A DNA stretch of 8,631 nt from Candidatus Eiseniibacteriota bacterium (GTDB taxonomy: Bacteria; Eisenbacteria; RBG-16-71-46; CAZEPH01). The notes under the pieces were generated by a model. The model was not told the DNA's origin, ran no database searches, and saw nothing but the letters and a program-made list of their open reading frames with translations. A program made the position numbers and the translations under genes. Shown here piece after piece: positions 1-8,548 of this stretch. Position 1 is the first letter of the stretch, and each line of letters starts with the position of its first letter. The stretch is from contig JBGATO010000123.1 in the NCBI GenBank assembly GCA_044229145.1, forward strand, positions 1 to 8,631. The letters are read 5' to 3'.

Positions 1-2669
1 TAGACGCCGTCGGCGTGGCACGCCAGACACGCCGCCGTGACGTGCGCGCCGGTCAGCGGGAACTGCGACGCGTCGTGATCGAAGGTCGAATTCGACCACG
101 TCGTCGTCGTGTGACAGGTCTCGCAGAGGGACGACGGGTAGCCGCCGCTGACGTGGTTCGGTGCCGAGGTGAAGTCGGCCATGTGACAGGCGTCGCACGC
201 CGTCGGCTTGCCGTTGTAGACCTTGTCAGCGTGACAGGCCTGGCAGTCGGCGCTGACGTGCGCGCCGGTGAGCACGAAGTCGGTGCGCGTGTGGTCGAAC
301 GGCGCGCCATCCCACGAGGATGTCGTGTGGCAGGAGGCGCACTCGGCCGGCGGCATCGCGGTGGCCGTGTGCGGCGGATCGGCTGCACCGTCGTAGTCGG
401 CCTGGTGGCACGACTGGCACGCGGTCGATTTCCCGTCGAACACGTTGTCGGCGTGGCACGCCATACAGTCGGCGGCGACGTGCGCGCCGGTGAGCGGGAA
501 TTGGGTCGTGTTGTGGTCGAACGTCGCGCCGGACCACGTCGTCGTCGTGTGACACGAGGCGCACGCGTTCGACCCGTAACCGGCGGCGCGGTGATCCGGC
601 GTCGCGCGGTCGTAGTCGTCCATGTGGCAGGCGTCGCAGGCGGTCGGTTTGCCTGCGTAGACGCCGTCGGCGTGGCACGCCAGACACGCCGCCGTGACGT
701 GGGCGCCGGTGAGCGCAAAGCCCGTCGACGCGTGATCGAACGGGGCGCGCGACCACGTCGTCGTGGTGTGGCAGGTGGCGCACTGCGCGGCGACGAAGCC
801 GGCCGCCGCGTGATCCGGCGTGGCACGCGAGTAGTCGTCCGCGTGGCAGGACTCGCACGCCGCCGGCTTGCCGGCGTAGACCTTGTCGGCGTGACACGCC
901 TGGCAGTCGGCGCTGACGTGCGCGCCGGTGAGCGCGAAGTCGGTGCGCGTGTGGTCGAACGGCGCGCCATCCCAGGACGAAGTCGTGTGGCACGCCGCGC
1001 ACTCGGCCGGCGGCATCGCGGTCGCCGTGTGCGGTGGATCGGTCGCGCCGTCGTAGTCGGCCTGGTGGCACGACTGGCACGCGGTGGATTTCCCGTCGAA
1101 GACGTTGTCCGCGTGACACGCGAGGCACGCGGCGTCGACGTGCCGCCCGGTGAGCGGGAACGAGGTCGTCGCGTGGTCGAAGTCGGCACCCAGCCACGTC
1201 GAGGTGGTGTGGCAGCCGGCGCACGCGTTGCTGGCGTAGCCCGCGGCGCGGTGATTCGGCGATGCGCGGTCGTAGTCGTCCATGTGGCAGGCGTCGCACG
1301 CGGACGACTTCCCCGCATAGACGCCATCGCCATGACACGCCGCGCACGCCACCGGCACATGCGCGCCGGTCAGCGGGAACGTGGTGCGCGCGTGATCGAA
1401 CGGCGCACCGGCCCAGCCCGCGGTCGTGTGGCACGCCGCGCACTCGGCAGGCGGCATCGCGGTCGCCGTGTGCGGCGGCGTCGCGCGTTGGTAATCCGCG
1501 GTGTGGCACGCCTGGCAGGCGCGATCGAGTCCGCGGTACACGCCGTCGCTGTGGCATGCGAGACACGCCGCGTCGGCATGCCGGCCGGTCAGCGGGAACG
1601 CGGTCCGCGTGTGGTCGAACGGCGCGCCCGCCCAGCCTGCGGTCGAGTGACAGGTGGCACACTTCTGCGGCGGCATGCCATCGGCCGTGTGCGGCGGCAC
1701 CGCGCGCGTGTAATCCGCGGCATGGCAGGCGTCGCAGGCCGTCGGCGTGCCAGCGTAGACGCCCGACGCGTGACATGCTTGGCACGCGGCCGCCGTGTGG
1801 CGACCGGTCAGCGGATACGCGGTCCGCGCGTGATCGAACGTCGCCCCGCTCCACTGCACCGTGGTGTGACAGGCGCCGCACTCCGCCGCCGGAAACGCCG
1901 TCGCGTCGTGCGGCGGGCGCGCGGCGGCCGTGTAGTCACTGTGGTGACAGGCGTCGCACGCCGTCGGCGTACCGGCGAATTGCCCGCCGGTGTGGCAAGC
2001 GCCGCACGCGGTTTCCGCGTGTGCCCCGGCGAGCGCGAAGCCGGTGCTCGCATGATCGAACGCCGCGTGCTCCCACGTCATCGTCGTATGACAGGTTTCG
2101 CACTGACGCGGATAGCCGCGCGTCACGTGATCGCGCGCGGTGGCGAACTGCTCGGCGTGACACGCATTGCACGCGGTCGCGGTGCCGACGAACTGCAGTT
2201 GCCCTTGCGCCGCCGGCGTGTGGCACATCTCGCAGTCCACCGCGCCGTGGCTGCCGGTGAGCGGGAATCGCGTCGCGGCGTGGGCACGCAACACTTGGCC
2301 CCGGTCGATGAAGCTCGTGGTGCCGTGGCATTGACCGCAGGCAGTGCCCATCTCGCCGCGATGGGGATCGTCATGACACGCCGCGCACGACGCCGGGGTC
2401 TGCGCGAAGGTGAGCGTGCGGTGACACGCCGTGCAGGCGGCCGACGCATGCGCGCCCTCGAGCGCGAATTTCGAGGACGCCGCGTGGTCGAAGCGCGTGC
2501 TGATGCGTGCCGGCTTCCAGCTGTCGGCGCGGTGGCACACTTCGCACTCGTCGCGCAGCGGACCGTGCGGATTGCCGGTGGCCGGCGCGTCGCCCGCGCG
2601 GGCCGCCGCCGCAACCAGCGCACACAACACGATCAGGCACGCGGCCACGCCGCGCAGGCGGTTACGCAT
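1..2669 (-). CDS. Giant repetitive multiheme cytochrome c (>=35 CxxCH), Sec-exported; truncated by the window edge
   Basis: Not in the ORF track, so translated by hand from ATG 2669: MRNRLRGVAACLIVLCALVAAAARA|GDAPATGNPHGPLRDECEVCHRADSWKPARISTRFDHAASSKFALEGAHASAACTACH... The frame stays open for 889 codons to position 3 (...FPLTGAHVTAACLACHADGV). I counted 35 CxxCH motifs. It has a Sec-type signal peptide (basic N-region, hydrophobic core, ARA cleavage site) and a GGAG RBS at 2678-2675. The last two bases read TA, and the paralogous repeat at 657-659 predicts TAC (Tyr) rather than a stop. Confidence 0.96.
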   Translation of the reverse strand, partial: MRNRLRGVAACLIVLCALVAAAARAGDAPATGNPHGPLRDECEVCHRADSWKPARISTRFDHAASSKFALEGAHASAACTACHRTLTFAQTPASCAACHDDPHRGEMGTACGQCHGTTSFIDRGQVLRAHAATRFPLTGSHGAVDCEMCHTPAAQGQLQFVGTATACNACHAEQFATARDHVTRGYPRQCETCHTTMTWEHAAFDHASTGFALAGAHAETACGACHTGGQFAGTPTACDACHHSDYTAAARPPHDATAFPAAECGACHTTVQWSGATFDHARTAYPLTGRHTAAACQACHASGVYAGTPTACDACHAADYTRAVPPHTADGMPPQKCATCHSTAGWAGAPFDHTRTAFPLTGRHADAACLACHSDGVYRGLDRACQACHTADYQRATPPHTATAMPPAECAACHTTAGWAGAPFDHARTTFPLTGAHVPVACAACHGDGVYAGKSSACDACHMDDYDRASPNHRAAGYASNACAGCHTTSTWLGADFDHATTSFPLTGRHVDAACLACHADNVFDGKSTACQSCHQADYDGATDPPHTATAMPPAECAACHTTSSWDGAPFDHTRTDFALTGAHVSADCQACHADKVYAGKPAACESCHADDYSRATPDHAAAGFVAAQCATCHTTTTWSRAPFDHASTGFALTGAHVTAACLACHADGVYAGKPTACDACHMDDYDRATPDHRAAGYGSNACASCHTTTTWSGATFDHNTTQFPLTGAHVAADCMACHADNVFDGKSTACQSCHQADYDGAADPPHTATAMPPAECASCHTTSSWDGAPFDHTRTDFVLTGAHVSADCQACHADKVYNGKPTACDACHMADFTSAPNHVSGGYPSSLCETCHTTTTWSNSTFDHDASQFPLTGAHVTAACLACHADGV
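75..2492 (-). repeat. Intragenic tandem repeat of 216-222 bp encoding a 72-74 aa tri-heme module (about 11 full copies visible)
   Basis: FDH codons have their lowest + coordinate at 75, 291, 513, 732, 951, 1173, 1392, 1611, 1830 and 2052 (spacings 216-222 bp), then an RAH variant near 2280 and FDH at 2484. Consensus: FDHxxTxFPLTGAHVxAxCxACHADxVYxGKPTACxxCHxxDYxxAxPxHxAxxxxxxxCAxCHTTxxWxGAP. Confidence 0.95.
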
Positions 2670-4416
2670 GGCAGCTCCGGCAGCTGGCCTGCACCGGCGT
2701 GTAGCGGACATACAGCCGTCCGTCGGCGTCGCGCACTTGTCCGTGACACCGCGCGCACGGCACCTGCTGGTGGCCGCCCTCGAGCGTGAACGACGTGTCG
2801 CGCGTGTGGTCGAACTTGGAGGCTGGCACGAACGAGGCGGTGTCGTGACACCGCTCGCACGCGCTGCCACCACGCCGCGCCGCGAACTGGCCCCGGTGGA
2901 CATCGGCGTGGCAGTCGGCGCAACCGTGCTTGGGCACTGCCAGGCCCATCACCGGCAGCGTGGCGCCGGCAAGCGTCTTGGGCGATGGCTTCGCCTTCAA
3001 CTCCTGATGGCACTCCTGACACGGCACCGCGCGATGCGCGCCCTCGAGCGGGAAGCCGCTGTCGGCATGCGCCTTCTCGTCGTAGGTCGAGGGCCGGAAC
3101 GTGTCGAAGCCGTGGCACGCCAGGCAGTCGTTCGCCCGCGCGCGCGCGCCGCCGGGGCGGAAACGGCCGGCGTGCGGATCGGCGTGGCACGCCACGCATG
3201 CCGCGTGTGCCGGACGCAAGTCGACGTGCGCGCTGCCGAGCGCCGCGTCGCGCTGGCGATGCGTGTGGCAGGCCGCGCATGCGGCAGCCGCGTGGCGCCC
3301 GCGCAACGGATACGCTGACGTCTGGTGCTGCGCCACCGTGTACGTCGAGGGCGCAAACGCGCGCACGTCGTGGCACGCCGCGCAGTCCACCGCCTTGCCC
3401 GCCAGCGTCGCCGTGCCATTGTGCGCGTCGCCATGACAGTCGGTGCAGCGGGCGAACGCCGGCTTCTGCGCGTTCGGCTTGCGCGGATCGTGGCACTTGT
3501 CGCAGGCGACCGCCGCGTGCGCGCCGCGCAACGGATACCGCGTCTTGTCGTGGTCGAAGGCACCCCGCGCGATCCGGCTGAACGAATCGGTGGTGTGACA
3601 CGACGCGCACGAACCGCCGAAGCGTCCGGCGTGCGGGTCCTTGTGGCAGGCATCGCAGTCGCCGTGCGGCAAGGGCGTCCAGCGCGGAATCGGCTGCCCC
3701 TTCGCATCGCGTCCGCGCGCCACCGCCGGCGTCGCGTGACAGGCCGCGCACGCGGTCTTCACGTGCGCGCCGGTCAATGGATAGTCGGTGCGCGCGTGAT
3801 CGAATCCGGCCGCGGGCTTCCACCGCGCTTGATCGTGGCACTTCAGACAGTCGTTGCCGAGTTGCGCCTTGTGCGGGTCTTCATGGCACGCGGTGCAGGA
3901 CGATTCGAGCCCGATCCATCCCGTCTTGGTCCGCTTCACTTTGCTCGCCGCGAGCGCGGGCGACTTCTGCAGCGGCCGTGTGTGACACTTCGTGCAGGCG
4001 AGCGACGCGTGCTTGCCTTCGAGCGCCCATCCGGCGCGACGGTGATCGAATTTCTCGGGCGCGCCACCGTCCCAGACGATCATCGCGAAGTCGCGCCCGC
4101 CGTGATCCTTGTGGCAGGCGGTGCAACTCTTGGACGCAACCGCGGGCGCGCCATGCAATCCCCGGCGATGTGTTCTCATCCACTGCACCTCGCCGTGACA
4201 CGCGAGGCATTGCGGATCGAGCCCCGCCGACCCCTTGGTCTTGGCGTGGCACTGGAAGCACTGGAGCGGACCTTCGAGCGAGCGGTGCGGCGCGGCCAAC
4301 GGGCCGGGCGACACCTGGGCCGCCGCGCGCGGACCGCCCGCGCACAGCGCGAGCACGGCGACGGCAACTGCCGTCCCCCAACGAACACCGGCGCACACGT
4401 CACGCAGGCCGCGCAC
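2662..4416 (-). CDS. Multiheme cytochrome c with 20 CxxCH motifs, Sec-exported
   Basis: The track ORF 2662..4590 has 20 CxxCH motifs (CFQCH to the terminal CRSCH) and the same FDH..[FY]PLxG[AR]H module. I moved the start to the in-frame GTG at 4416 (alternative GTG 4398) because a purine-rich GGAAAGGG/GAGG precedes it and a signal peptide follows (..WGTAVAVAVLALCAGGPRAAA|QVSPGPL). The exact start is uncertain. Confidence 0.95.
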   Translation of the reverse strand: MRGLRDVCAGVRWGTAVAVAVLALCAGGPRAAAQVSPGPLAAPHRSLEGPLQCFQCHAKTKGSAGLDPQCLACHGEVQWMRTHRRGLHGAPAVASKSCTACHKDHGGRDFAMIVWDGGAPEKFDHRRAGWALEGKHASLACTKCHTRPLQKSPALAASKVKRTKTGWIGLESSCTACHEDPHKAQLGNDCLKCHDQARWKPAAGFDHARTDYPLTGAHVKTACAACHATPAVARGRDAKGQPIPRWTPLPHGDCDACHKDPHAGRFGGSCASCHTTDSFSRIARGAFDHDKTRYPLRGAHAAVACDKCHDPRKPNAQKPAFARCTDCHGDAHNGTATLAGKAVDCAACHDVRAFAPSTYTVAQHQTSAYPLRGRHAAAACAACHTHRQRDAALGSAHVDLRPAHAACVACHADPHAGRFRPGGARARANDCLACHGFDTFRPSTYDEKAHADSGFPLEGAHRAVPCQECHQELKAKPSPKTLAGATLPVMGLAVPKHGCADCHADVHRGQFAARRGGSACERCHDTASFVPASKFDHTRDTSFTLEGGHQQVPCARCHGQVRDADGRLYVRYTPVQASCRSCHA

Positions 4417-4880: not shown

Positions 4881-5645
4881 ATGCCCGCCTTGCAGCACGC
4901 TGACTTCTGCGATCGGCTCGCCCCGCTCGTCCACCGCATGGCCGATGTCCTCGAGGGCGCCGACCTCTCCGCCCCGGTCCCCACCTGCGGCGACGACTGG
5001 ACGCTGTACAGCCTCGCGGAACACCTCGGCTTGATCCACCGCTGGGCGGAACGCCTGGTGCGCGATCTCTCGCCCGAACGCATCGACCGCGCCGCGCTGG
5101 GCGTGACCGTCCCGGACGCCGCCGGCATGGCGGCGTGGATGCGCGCCGGCGCCGCTCCACTGGTCGCCGCATTCCGGGCGACGAATCCGGACGCGCCGAT
5201 GTGGGCGTGGGGCGCCGACCAGCACGCGCGCTTCTGGTCGCGCCGCCAGGTCCACGAAACCGCGGTGCATCTGCACGACGCGGAACTCGCCGCGGGCGTC
5301 GCGGTGTCGCCCATCGAGCCCGCAGTCGCGGACGATGGTGTGGACGAATTCCTCGTCAACATGCCGTGTGCGGCGCGCTGGGCGCCGCGCATCGCCGAAT
5401 TGCGCGGCCACGGCGAGGAGATCGCCTTGCACGCCACCGACACAGGCAGCGAGTGGACGCTGACGCTGACGTCGGAGGGTCTCACGTGGTCGCGCGCAGT
5501 ATCGGCCGCTCCCGTGGTTCGCGCGGCCGCCACGGCCGAAACGCTGTACCTGCTGCTCTGGCAGCGCCGCGGCCTCGAGCACTGCGCGGTCGAGGGCTCG
5601 CCTGGCGCACTCGCCACCGTGCTTGCGGCGGTCGAGGACTTCTAA
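4881..5645 (+). CDS. Maleylpyruvate isomerase family (MDMPI-like, DinB superfamily) metal-dependent enzyme
   Basis: 254 aa from ATG 4881 with a GGAG RBS. The motifs APVPTCGDDWTLYSLAEHLGLIHRWA and FWSRRQVHETAVHLHDA match the MDMPI N-terminal pattern (His...Glu-x3-His metal triad). The C-terminal part (ADDGVDEFL...LHATDTGSEW...LYLLLWQR) resembles the MDMPI C-terminal domain. Confidence 0.88.
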   Translation: MPALQHADFCDRLAPLVHRMADVLEGADLSAPVPTCGDDWTLYSLAEHLGLIHRWAERLVRDLSPERIDRAALGVTVPDAAGMAAWMRAGAAPLVAAFRATNPDAPMWAWGADQHARFWSRRQVHETAVHLHDAELAAGVAVSPIEPAVADDGVDEFLVNMPCAARWAPRIAELRGHGEEIALHATDTGSEWTLTLTSEGLTWSRAVSAAPVVRAAATAETLYLLLWQRRGLEHCAVEGSPGALATVLAAVEDF

Positions 5646-5725: not shown

Positions 5726-6262
5726 TCAGCGAATCTGCCGGTCCGTCGGCATCGGCACCGAGACCCGCTCCCACTCGCGTTCCAGTCCCGACCGCTCACC
5801 CTTCTCGACGAAGGCGCGCAGGTGGCGGTTGAACAGTTCGGTCCAGCCGCGGGTGTAGACCGCTTCGAGGCGCGGCGTGAACAACCCCATCGCGTGGTGC
5901 GCCAGATGCAGCTGCGTTCCCTTCGGCGTGTCGGTCAATTCGAGGTGTACGCGCCCTTCCACCGGGCCGCGAATCCCCATTGCCCCGCGGAGGTCCACCG
6001 ACACGTTCCGCTCGAAGCCGGTGATGGTCGCCCACATCGCCCCTTCGCCCTCGCCCCAGTCTTCGTAGAGCCGGCCGCCGAGGCGGGTTTCGAGCACCAC
6101 GGTGCGCGCCCGCGATGGATTGCGCAGGTACGGCGCGCCCCACCACGCACCGATCGAGCCCGTCAGCGCGCGAAACACCTGCGCCCGCGGCGCGTCGATG
6201 AAAAAGTCCAATTCGATGCAGAGCGACTGCATCTCGCGAATGTTGCCCATCTCGAACGTCAT
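5726..6262 (-). CDS. SRPBCC/START-fold (AHSA1-like) domain protein
   Basis: 178 aa from ATG 6262 with an AAGGAG RBS (6274-6269). The pattern IDAPRAQVFRALT...GAWW...LETRLGGRLYE...GTQLHLAH...YTRGWTELF..HLRAFVE is typical of the AHSA1/SRPBCC family. Confidence 0.85.
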   Translation of the reverse strand: MTFEMGNIREMQSLCIELDFFIDAPRAQVFRALTGSIGAWWGAPYLRNPSRARTVVLETRLGGRLYEDWGEGEGAMWATITGFERNVSVDLRGAMGIRGPVEGRVHLELTDTPKGTQLHLAHHAMGLFTPRLEAVYTRGWTELFNRHLRAFVEKGERSGLEREWERVSVPMPTDRQIR

Positions 6263-6637
6263 GATCGTCTCCTTGTCGCGGGCGATGCGACGACTCACCC
6301 GCGTGCTGGCCAGCATCAGCGCGATCATCCCGCCGCGGCAGGCCCGCCGCTATGCGACGTGAGGGAAGCGTGGTCGTGCAACTTCCGAGGGACGCGGACC
6401 GGTCCGCTCGCAGCACTGCGACCGAGGGTGCGGCGGTCCTTCGCCTTCCAACCCGTGGACAACCCGCGCCCGTCGTCCCACGGTGGCGGGGTCTCCGTGT
6501 GCCGGCACGTCCTCCACGGCCAGGCACCAGACGGCGGACGGCGGCCACGCGAGCGTGCGGCTCGTGCCGCTCGGCGCGCTCCGCGACGTCGTACGTGTTG
6601 CGCCGTGGCACTCGAGCGGCACGAAGCGAGTCGAGCC

Positions 6638-7372
6638 ATGCGCTTGTCCGTTCTCGCATGCGCCCTTGGCGCATGCATCGCGGTTGGCCTCGCCGTCCCC
6701 GCCTTCGCGGCGATCACCCCTCCGAACGTTCGCCCTCAGCCTGTCGAGGGCACACTGCTCCAGGATCACTTCAGCCGCCTCGGCGAGGCGATCGACGTCG
6801 TCGCCGATCAGTGCAATGCGTGCTCATGGACGTTTGCTTCGGGCGCGTCCACCACACTGACCCTCACGCTCGTCTTGGGAGGCACGCCGGCCGCGCAATC
6901 GATCGGCCTCTACGACGTCGCCCGCCCGGAAAGCGAACGTGAAATCTTCCCCGCGATCGCCGGCAACGGATGGACGGCGCGCATCGCGATCGACCACTGG
7001 GATCCCGGTCTGTTGCGGATCGAGGTCTTCGACGTGCACGGGGACAGGTATTCCGTGCGCTACGCGGACACCGAGGATCTCGAGACCTTTGGCTTCTACG
7101 TCCATCCGACCCCGACCGCCGGCTCCGCCAAGTGCTTCCACACCGAGGACCACGAGAACGGCTGCCTGCCCGGCGGGACGCTGGTGCCGCAGGCACTCGT
7201 CTACCCGGCGGCGGTCCATGGGGACGACGCCTGGTGGGTGGCGTTCCAGGAAACCTCCACCACCGCAAAGCCGCACAGCTTTGCCGACATCCTCGTGTTG
7301 GTGCAGCGCGACACCGTGACGCCGGTGCCGCGGACAACCTGGGGGGCGATCAAGTCCATCTTTGCCCACTGA
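6638..7372 (+). CDS. Secreted protein of unknown function (DUF4114-like C-terminal half) with a TWGxxK C-terminal tail
   Basis: This is the 3' part of track ORF 5135..7372. From ATG 6638 (244 aa) there is a clear signal peptide MRLSVLACALGACIAVGLAVPAFA|A and normal amino-acid composition, and it ends VTPVPRTTWGAIKSIFAH*. The DUF4114 resemblance is by eye only. Confidence 0.8.
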   Translation: MRLSVLACALGACIAVGLAVPAFAAITPPNVRPQPVEGTLLQDHFSRLGEAIDVVADQCNACSWTFASGASTTLTLTLVLGGTPAAQSIGLYDVARPESEREIFPAIAGNGWTARIAIDHWDPGLLRIEVFDVHGDRYSVRYADTEDLETFGFYVHPTPTAGSAKCFHTEDHENGCLPGGTLVPQALVYPAAVHGDDAWWVAFQETSTTAKPHSFADILVLVQRDTVTPVPRTTWGAIKSIFAH

Positions 7373-7412
7373 CCCGCAGTTCGCACGCCGGGCGCCCCTG
7401 AGGCACCCCGTC

Positions 7413-7454
7413 GTCCGGGCGCCGAGTCCGGCCTGTCCGGCCCGGCGCCCGGAC
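7413..7454 (+). terminator. Hairpin downstream of the 6638 gene
   Basis: GTCCGGGCGCCG (7413-7424) and CGGCGCCCGGAC (7443-7454) form a perfect 12 bp stem, followed by AGTTTCC. Confidence 0.5.
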
Positions 7455-7486
7455 AGTTTCCTGGCGAACCCACAGCTTCTTGGCAG

Positions 7487-7515
7487 TTGACGAGCCTGCC
7501 ACGGCAGAGTAGCCT
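7487..7515 (+). promoter_or_regulatory. Putative sigma70-type promoter for the 7625 gene
   Basis: TTGACG (7487-7492), 17 nt spacer, TAGCCT (7510-7515), immediately after the hairpin that closes the upstream gene. Confidence 0.6.
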
Positions 7516-7624
7516 TTCGTCGACTTACCGCATCAAGGAAGACCTCTCGGGGATCCAGCCCCATCCTTCCTCTGCACCGTTGTCTGGTTCACCTGGCATC
7601 TTCGCGCCGTTTAGGAGGATCCCC

Positions 7625-8548
7625 ATGCAGTCTCGCTCCAAGGCCGCCGCCTTGTTGCTCTTGCTTCCTGCGCTATTCCTGGCCCGGCCGGCCCGCGCGC
7701 AGCTCACCTATGACCCGGTGTCCATCAGCGTGACGTCGCTCGGACACGGCAAGGTGGCGCTTTCCGTCACCGCGGGGCAGAGCGGCACGCCGAACGGATT
7801 CGCGCTCTGGTGGATGACCTCCGCCCAGTTCGCCTCGCTTGGCTACCAGTGGCCCGACAACTTGGTGACCGGCGAAGGCTGGGCCAAGTTCACCGGCATC
7901 CCGACGCTGAACGTGTTCGCTGGCGAGCCCGGCACCTTCGTCCTCGGCCCGAACCAAACGATCACCGTCGAAATCGGCGACCTCGCCGATGAAACCGGCC
8001 GCACCTCGAACATCGTGTCCGAGCTCGACTACGACGAGTCGTACGTGTTCTGTGCGTACGCGCGCGGCGACCAGACCATCGGCAACAGCCCGCTCTCGAC
8101 TACCGAAACCGGCGTGACGACCAACAGCGTGAACTGCACCTACACGGTCGGCTACTGGAAGAACCACACGTCGGCGTGGCACGTCTCGAGCCTCACGCTC
8201 GGCACCGTCAGCTACAGCGCGAGCCAGTTGCTGTCGATCCTCAACAAGCCGGTGGCCGGGAACGGCCTCATCTCGCTGTCGCACCAGTTGATCGCGACGA
8301 AGTTGAACCTCGCCAACGGCGCGGACCCGACGGCCGCCCTCCCGACGGTCAATGCCGCGGACGCCATGATCGGCAGCTTGATCGTGCCGCCGGTCGGCAG
8401 CGGCTACCTGTCGCCGAGCTCGACCTCGGGCTACACGCAGATCCTCGACAACTTCAACAACGGCGTCATCGGCCCGGGCCACTGCGGCAGCGTGACACCG
8501 GTGTCCCCGTCGACGTGGGGCGGCCTGAAGGCGCTCTACTCGCGATAG
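7625..8548 (+). CDS. Secreted two-domain protein (beta-rich N-domain plus CTxTxGYWKNH domain) with a TWGxxK C-terminal tail
   Basis: A perfect AGGAGG RBS (7613-7618) precedes ATG 7625 (307 aa). Signal peptide MQSRSKAAALLLLLPALFLARPARA|Q; Ser/Thr/Gly/Asn-rich composition typical of extracellular proteins; ends VTPVSPSTWGGLKALYSR*. Confidence 0.9.
   Translation: MQSRSKAAALLLLLPALFLARPARAQLTYDPVSISVTSLGHGKVALSVTAGQSGTPNGFALWWMTSAQFASLGYQWPDNLVTGEGWAKFTGIPTLNVFAGEPGTFVLGPNQTITVEIGDLADETGRTSNIVSELDYDESYVFCAYARGDQTIGNSPLSTTETGVTTNSVNCTYTVGYWKNHTSAWHVSSLTLGTVSYSASQLLSILNKPVAGNGLISLSHQLIATKLNLANGADPTAALPTVNAADAMIGSLIVPPVGSGYLSPSSTSGYTQILDNFNNGVIGPGHCGSVTPVSPSTWGGLKALYSR

Follow-up and report, generated by a model that had tools for sequence, protein, structure and literature searches.

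A conserved 17-residue C-terminal tail on small exported proteins of a Candidatus Eiseniibacteriota bacterium, a candidate docking or sorting tag

Two exported proteins with a common tail

The DNA analyzed here (the window) is the entire 8631-base contig C57 of G000, a draft genome of a Candidatus Eiseniibacteriota bacterium (GCA_044229145.1; 4.23 Mb, 69% G+C, 164 contigs, 89% complete). Its forward strand carries two neighboring genes, A and B, for exported proteins that differ in their bodies and end in a common short tail, which is the subject of this study. The features of the two genes are the following, with the basis of each assignment given last.

6638–7372, + strand: gene A, exported protein of 244 amino acids (aa); translation
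6638–6709, + strand: signal peptide of A, 24 aa, predicted cut between AFA and A; sequence reading, start from a codon-model gene caller
7316–7369, + strand: tail of A, VTPVPRTTWGAIKSIFAH, stop codon at 7370–7372; profile match of 37.7 bits, E 1.1e-8
7625–8548, + strand: gene B, exported protein of 307 aa with an FN3-like sandwich and a helical domain; translation, AlphaFold2
7625–7699, + strand: signal peptide of B, 25 aa, predicted cut between ARA and Q; sequence reading, crude predictor
8492–8545, + strand: tail of B, VTPVSPSTWGGLKALYSR, stop codon at 8546–8548; profile match of 37.6 bits

Both proteins start with Sec-type signal peptides as read from the sequence (MRLSVLACALGACIAVGLAVPAFA followed by A in protein A, MQSRSKAAALLLLLPALFLARPARA followed by Q in protein B), mature B is predicted to begin with glutamine, and residues 10–13 of A (LGAC) are also lipobox-like. 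A first-pass annotation of the window had described two exported proteins with dissimilar bodies and a common tail, and this holds exactly, coordinates included. The two tails align without gaps and are identical in 8 of 18 residues, again as had been described, and the tail is all that BLASTP aligns between A and B (19 aa, 8 identical, E 0.001). The proteins are therefore not paralogues, and full-length paralogy, which would have spoken against the idea of a shared signal, is excluded.

Protein A gave no match in Pfam or NCBIfam at E ≤ 10 and has no homologue but itself among 5.8 billion proteins; within G000 it has a single paralogue, on contig C19. Protein B likewise found no NCBIfam match at E ≤ 10, and Pfam returned just a weak and unrelated match to GldM_3rd. 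B belongs to a family of 1217 protein clusters (E ≤ 1e-5, about 55% identical) from Krumholzibacteria, Eiseniibacteriota, and Latescibacteria, every one of which is named hypothetical and none of which has a Pfam domain; no Pfam or NCBIfam model exists for this family. Its invariant residues include C171, W178, W185, and C287, with the motif NCTYTxGYWKNH, and the tail is retained in 116 of the 120 members listed, the other four carrying near variants. The family was found in 9 of the 41 genomes of the class that served as one of our two sets of relatives (E ≤ 1e-30), yet it is about 55% identical between named phyla. This patchy occurrence led us to reject B as core machinery and to regard it as cargo.

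An AlphaFold2 model of B (50-row alignment; mean predicted local distance difference test score, pLDDT, of 86.4) comprises an FN3-like sandwich (residues 33–164) and a helical domain (residues 175–278), and a Foldseek search with this model matched FN3 domains alone. Within the tail, residues 290–296 appear as a linker with pLDDT below 50 and residues 298–306 as a free helix (pLDDT about 60) that is not packed on the body, which agrees with the first-pass prediction of a flexible Pro/Thr linker leading into a short helix.

Properties of the tail and of the proteins that carry it

When all six-frame open reading frames (ORFs) of G000 were scanned with a strict form of the motif, 47 C-terminal copies and one internal copy were retrieved. 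A relaxed form, [TSA]WG.[ILVM]K..[FYWM], occurred 61 times in the called proteome (3478 genes from a crude codon-model gene caller), and here 60 copies lie within 15 aa of the stop, while the lone non-terminal copy is located 23 aa before the protein end. The expectation that the tail is C-terminal rather than internal is thus borne out. In 100 residue-shuffled G000 proteomes, which set the chance level, the relaxed motif was found 0.29 times on average and twice at most. A profile of 26 columns built from the G000 tails (alignment A4) detected 61 places in the genome at E ≤ 1e-5 (28–46 bits), and the next match scored 20.8 bits.

The consensus comprises 17 residues, TP(V/A)xPx(T/S)WGx(I/V)Kx(L/I)(Y/F)R-stop. 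Numbered from the tryptophan, the positions of the conserved residues are T(−7) P(−6) V/A(−5) x P(−3) T/S/A(−2) T/S(−1) W G x I/V K x L/I Y/F R(+8), and their spacing is fixed. That W, G, and K appear invariant in a sequence logo is in part a product of the regular expression, in which these residues are obligatory; the same set of tails is recovered by the profile search, where they are not. The Y/F-R pair stands immediately before the stop in 31 of the 60 proteins and one residue earlier in 18 more; at most four residues follow the motif in 59 proteins and 12 in the remaining one, and the final residue is arginine in 46/60. On a helical wheel of the consensus W, I, L, and Y fall on a single face with K and R beside it, and the mean helical hydrophobic moment of the tails is 0.40, compared with a strand moment of 0.35.

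Tail proteins account for 60 of the 3478 called genes (about 1.7%) and are small (median 224 aa, range 90–391). Signal peptides were assessed with crude predictors in a strict and a permissive version. The strict test was positive for 55/60 tail genes versus 876/3077 other genes when any in-frame start was allowed, and for 26/60 versus 292/3077 at the called start. With the permissive test, 59/60 tail genes were positive when the start was freely chosen and 50/60 at the called start, where 34.5% of the other genes were positive as well. BLAST sorts 59 bodies, stripped of their signal peptides and tails, into 39 groups, of which the largest have seven and five members. These bodies match 24 Pfam families, including NHL, LTD, DUF642, CHRD, NIDO, Laminin_G_3, TED, Big_1, and CBM_4_9. 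Matches to NCBIfam comprise the choice-of-anchor families C (two proteins), L (one), and W (one), and an NHL family whose name refers to PEP-CTERM proteins is matched by five bodies; judging from the names and definitions of these families, such bodies presumably carry other sorting tags in other lineages. The proteome scan proposed at first pass thus yielded many copies, mostly on proteins with signal peptides and with diverse domains.

No Pfam or NCBIfam model covers the tail, as judged from the models matched against 59 tail proteins, and this also answers the suggestion that NCBIfam might already hold one. A profile search of PDB sequences gave no tail match. In full-text literature outside subscription journals, no mention of the tail was found under these phyla, T9SS (type IX secretion system) or sorting, sortase-type systems, or the motif strings, and a term search of the myxosortase preprint (10.1101/2023.06.07.544157) returned neither these taxa nor the motif. 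As the first-pass annotation had maintained, the tail is distinct from the definitions of LPXTG, PEP-CTERM, GlyGly-CTERM, and the C-terminal domain (CTD) of the T9SS. It is outside every catalogued signal family.

Distribution across genomes and phyla

In the 41 genomes of the class, the tail was present in 40 (E ≤ 1e-4), with 0 to 62 copies each. In the second set of relatives, an even sample of 101 genomes of the phylum, it was detected in 86 (E ≤ 1e-6). Most genomes without it belong to a single family, f9, in which 8/20 genomes were positive, versus 77/80 in all other families together; in genus g33 of f9, 0/4 genomes were positive. Genomes of f9 are small (2.1–3.5 Mb, e.g., G035, G040, G058, G092, and G093) and contain 0–3 copies of the tail. 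When the best matches from 20 different relatives were inspected, the motif lay 0–3 aa before the stop in all 20, and a signal-peptide-like start was present within the 900 bases fetched in 16 of them, one being doubtful.

The tail was also sought at the DNA level, in contigs from one genome per species, with a degenerate pattern encoding T-W-G-x-[IV]-K-x-L-Y-R-stop, and at least 130 stretches matched. Among the 80 matches listed, 21 are titled Candidatus Eisenbacteria, six Latescibacterota/Latescibacteria, five Krumholzibacteriota/Krumholzibacteriia, three Fibrobacteraceae, three Gemmatimonadota, and one Zixiibacteriota; 41 are titled just "bacterium". The record titles bear out two of the lineages named at first pass as carriers of such tails, Eisenbacteria and Krumholzibacteria, but not Poribacteria, none of which were seen. 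In five of these genomes, at least 21, 14, 9, 19, and 4 matches to the tail profile were counted (E ≤ 1e-5); these numbers are lower bounds, with 150 candidates scored per genome, and in one of the five (titled Eisenbacteria) the match coordinates are identical to those of a phylum-sample genome from the same class.

Relation to type IX secretion

G000 encodes SprA, the pore of the T9SS, as a 2186-aa protein (C127:8704–15264) scoring above the cut-off. The gene for the sortase PorU is split over contigs C101 and C39, and adjoins a gene for a PorV-like protein on C39. Both scores are below the curated cut-offs; the PorV product carries PF19572, and there are seven more PorV-like matches in the genome. 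GldL and GldM were not found in any of nine genomes (G000 and eight relatives) in searches run without a positive control. SprA is present in 41/41 relatives, f9 included, and in 5/5 genomes from other named phyla, and the genomes tested for it include all 45 tail-bearing genomes tested, all of which are SprA-positive.

According to a CTD profile of our own, a type A CTD stands at the end of 221 of the 3478 called genes (6.4%); the curated model TIGR04183 gave 65 matches among 150 candidates scored. CTD proteins are large, with a median of 748 aa. None of the 60 tail proteins is matched by our CTD profile, no CTD family (TIGR04183, Pfam) is among the matches of 59 tail proteins at E ≤ 0.01, and CTD and tail occur together on 0 of 281 proteins. 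An hhalign comparison of the tail profile with the G000 CTD profile returned a probability of 0.1%.

CTD proteins are the commonest neighbor family of tail genes. An immediate CTD neighbor was recorded for 18/60 tail genes versus 122/1029 other signal-peptide genes (odds ratio 3.2, p 2.5e-4) and for 308/3197 of all other genes; CTD genes adjoin one another at a like rate (69/221). Adjacent tail-CTD pairs are co-directional in 13 of 19 cases and mostly 44–193 bases apart, apart from one overlap of 25 bases and one gap of 982. Several arrangements deserve description in their own right. On C154 (12333–18503) and C131 (22236–28214), cassettes are found in which a tailed NHL-propeller gene (about 335 aa) alternates with a gene for a CTD-ended right-handed beta-helix protein. 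At C149:8708–19873, four tail genes lie beside a gene for a CTD-ended protein of 1145 aa with a C25-peptidase match to the PorU model. Directly downstream of SprA, a Peptidase_M28-type lipoprotein of 311 aa is encoded (C127:7772–8707, − strand), which might be a glutaminyl-cyclase-like enzyme; glutamine is the first mature residue in 8/59 tail proteins, B among them, according to crude cleavage predictions.

Tail proteins also resemble CTD cargo in their make-up. The arginine content is 2.5% in tail bodies, 4.1% in CTD cargo, and 7.5% in other signal-peptide proteins, and tail bodies are low in Lys, Glu, and Leu and high in Asn, Ser, Thr, and Gly, as is CTD cargo. A logistic classifier trained on composition, which recognized 95% of cargo and miscalled 6.5% of other proteins in cross-validation, assigned 59 of 59 tail bodies to the cargo-like class. 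In addition, homology to N-terminal domains of large CTD proteins was seen in 8/60 tail bodies and reaches 61% identity over 161 aa; the proteins matched are 8/221 CTD proteins versus 10/3197 others.

The family f9 keeps SprA, four to six PorV-like genes and 9–23 CTD matches per genome (E ≤ 1e-7), and 12 of its 20 genomes are without tail at E ≤ 1e-6. Since f9 retains the T9SS and its cargo yet has so few tails, it seems that the T9SS accompanies the tail in all genomes examined but does not predict it. No catalogued signal matched the tail, but the tail is not independent of known systems, in that SprA is present in every genome tested and the tail proteins resemble and neighbor T9SS cargo.

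Multihaem cytochromes and other genes of the window

On the reverse strand, positions 3–4356 of the window encode two multihaem cytochromes with 35 and 20 CxxCH motifs, the second of which matches cytochrome c7/c3 families. The 3′ end of the larger one runs off the contig. Contig C76 opens with a stretch 95% identical to residues 668–833 of this larger cytochrome and probably continues it (C76:2–3279). The question had been raised whether the giant cytochrome ends in the same tail as A and B; its probable continuation ends in ...ACHPRGKA, with neither tail nor CTD. The tail was found on 0/14 called proteins with at least five CxxCH motifs. Next on C76 is an ORF of 529 aa without Pfam match that ends in ...GLSYRF like outer-membrane barrels, and a similar cytochrome/barrel-like pair is located on C148; these pairs look like porin-cytochrome conduits. 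Between the cytochromes and the tail genes of the window lie two ordinary genes of cytoplasmic type (4881–5645, + strand, and 5726–6328, − strand), one with an MDMPI_N (DinB-like) domain and the other with an AHSA1/SRPBCC-type domain.

Interpretation of the tail

The reading that we prefer, with a chance somewhat short of even, is that the tail serves as a portable docking or sorting tag that takes small exported proteins to the cell surface by way of a putative envelope reader. The Pro/Thr linker (TPVxPxT) and the short segment WGxIKxLYR, which is predicted to be helical, would together form a portable C-terminal tag of 17 residues. The tail marks about 60 small Sec-exported proteins of G000; it would dock its carriers to a putative envelope receptor, and the carriers would reach the cell surface alongside T9SS cargo. 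Presumably, then, a protein reads the tail, the tail proteins are destined for the outer surface, and the tail stays on the protein, uncleaved, as a non-covalent docking peptide. As far as sequences can tell, the retention of the tail in 116/120 listed relatives of B and its position 0–3 aa before the stop in 20/20 relatives suggest that it is under selection, and the conservation of fixed spacing from T−7 and P−6 to R+8 favors specific recognition. Composition, neighborhood, and common domains point to the same destination as that of T9SS cargo.

Several points weigh against this reading. The helical nature of the tail comes from a part of the B model that is of low confidence (pLDDT about 60). 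The gene caller and the signal-peptide tests are crude, the permissive test being positive for 34.5% of other genes. The enrichment of CTD genes next to tail genes is also expected from a general clustering of secretome genes, as seen among the CTD genes themselves (69/221), and the likeness in composition and domains could reflect a common fold class, that is, beta-rich binding modules, instead of a common location. No reader of the tail emerged among the candidates that were compared with the tail's distribution. The number of PorV-like paralogues was rejected as a correlate because it is 4–6 in tail-poor f9 and 5–6 in the small, tail-bearing genomes of f11. The conserved but unannotated envelope protein g2721 (1084 aa) occurs in 40/41 relatives, including all six f9 genomes, and was likewise rejected. 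The same applies to exosortase (PF09721), which is present in the tail-free genomes G029, G035, and G040; in the tail-rich genomes G014, G032, G007, and G026 it was not found.

The remaining candidates can be listed briefly. SprA was rejected as a discriminator in view of its presence in all 41 relatives, f9 included. Sortase (PF04203) was not found in G000, a genome 89% complete, while control genomes were positive. The unannotated protein g1840 (1362 aa) has no relatives in five genomes and was dropped, and the other large signal-peptide proteins scanned belong to known families (Sortilin/BNR, LptD, TonB receptors, TamB, RHS, GH92, GH31, and tricorn-like). The neighbors of g2721 are a TPR protein and a lipoprotein. 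Complex prediction was applied to PorV (residues 26–329) and the 46 C-terminal residues of B, with alignments of 51 and 50 rows, respectively; the interface scores (ipSAE) were 0.00 and 0.01 against a mark of 0.32, and we take this as evidence neither way.

The first-pass interpretation is supported in part, and the idea that the tail is the signal of an uncharacterized secretion or anchoring pathway stays a hypothesis. A wide-ranging version of this idea, to which we assign a rather low likelihood, is that the tail labels a separate, undescribed sorting route of Eisenbacteria-type diderm bacteria. Such a route would depend on a dedicated receptor or pore in the outer membrane, operate in parallel with a T9SS for which the searches found no GldL or GldM, and serve 1–2% of the proteome across six or more named lineages.

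The tail could also be a T9SS signal in extremely reduced form, in which case PorV and SprA would recognize it and PorU would cut it off, as happens to a type A CTD. The presence of SprA in 41/41 relatives and in 5/5 genomes from other phyla, the occurrence of PorU and PorV in G000, and the composition, neighborhood, and domains in common with CTD cargo all fit this explanation, as does the finding that 0/281 proteins carry both tags, a pattern that alternative signals would show. Moreover, short signals are on record for the T9SS: passages of PMC11969387 report CTDs of 40–51 aa in Prevotella intermedia and cite the finding that the last 22 residues of the Hbp35 CTD sufficed for secretion and attachment of GFP, and for this reason a minimal T9SS signal is kept as a live rival. 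Nevertheless, TIGR04183, Pfam, and our own CTD profile match 0/60 tail proteins, the hhalign probability is 0.1%, the tail has a length of 17 aa and a predicted helix in place of a beta-hairpin, and 12/20 f9 genomes are tail-free despite SprA, PorV, and many CTD cargo proteins, so that we judge a reduced T9SS signal to be unlikely.

Membrane-targeting helices of about 10 residues exist, and the tail might accordingly work without any machinery, as an amphipathic anchor lying in the plane of the membrane like the C-terminal helices of PBP5/PBP6 or the membrane-targeting sequence of MinD. The location of W, I, L, and Y on the same helix face with K/R flanks, the helical moment of 0.40, the prediction of a free terminal helix, and the lack of a reader among our candidates would all be accommodated. 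Generic anchors, however, keep a pattern and not an identity, whereas W, G, and K and the Pro/Thr spacer are fixed between phyla; a glycine right behind the tryptophan is unusual in a plain helix, the strand moment (0.35) nearly equals the helical one, and the cargo-like composition (2.5% versus 7.5% Arg) argues away from the periplasm. An anchor of this kind therefore appears improbable to us.

It is very improbable that the tail is a hitch-hiker tag which binds T9SS cargo, often the product of the gene next door, and lets the small protein ride through the wide SprA pore: 18/60 tail genes adjoin a CTD gene, 13/19 adjacent pairs are co-directional and mostly 44–193 bases apart, and cassettes of tailed NHL propellers and beta-helix CTD proteins recur on C131 and C154, but 42/60 tail genes have no adjacent CTD gene, and A and B themselves are without a CTD neighbor on their contig.

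Time and again, the study of short C-terminal tags has brought new envelope machines to light, namely sortase, exosortase, rhombosortase, myxosortase, and the T9SS. The tail is conserved in several little-known and mostly uncultured phyla and sits on binding-type and "choice-of-anchor" modules. As it lacks a Pfam or NCBIfam model, thousands of proteins are currently annotated without it, and a tail profile would bring an immediate gain in predicting the secretomes of these lineages. The contrast between tail-poor f9 (12/20 genomes with none) and the other families (77/80 positive) offers a means of finding the reader by phylogenetic profiling.

Comparison with known sorting systems

The beta-signal of the beta-barrel assembly machinery (BAM) can be set aside, because the tail usually ends in arginine (46/60) and not in an aromatic residue and the bodies are of soluble type (NHL, FN3-like, LamG, CBM). 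With PBP5/PBP6 anchors and the MinD membrane-targeting sequence the tail has in common its shortness and terminal position, its possibly helical form, an aromatic/aliphatic face, Lys/Arg flanks, and a flexible linker. It differs from them in that its W, G, and K and the spacing of its linker are conserved between phyla and in that the bodies match secreted cargo in composition.

A different kind of likeness exists to the tripartite signals LPXTG (sortase), PEP-CTERM (exosortase), GlyGly-CTERM (rhombosortase), and MYXO-CTERM (myxosortase). Here, too, a short motif ends dozens of unrelated exported proteins, and some of the tail bodies come from "choice-of-anchor" families. The tail is, however, not backed by a transmembrane helix and a basic cluster behind the motif, the distribution of exosortase does not follow that of the tail, and no sortase was found.

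The type A CTD of the T9SS (TIGR04183/PF18962), whose carriers are handled by the PorV shuttle, the SprA pore, and the PorU sortase, differs from the tail in length (40–100 residues compared with 17) and in its beta-sandwich, which the tail lacks together with any likeness to motifs B, D, and E. It resides on much larger proteins (median 748 versus 224 aa) and persists in the T9SS-keeping family f9, where the tail is scarce. On the other hand, both are C-terminal tags of Sec-exported proteins with diverse, surface-type bodies, and the two are never found together on one protein. Among the genomes tested for SprA, the tail has been seen in SprA-bearing ones only, and the proteins it marks share composition, domains, and neighborhood with CTD cargo.

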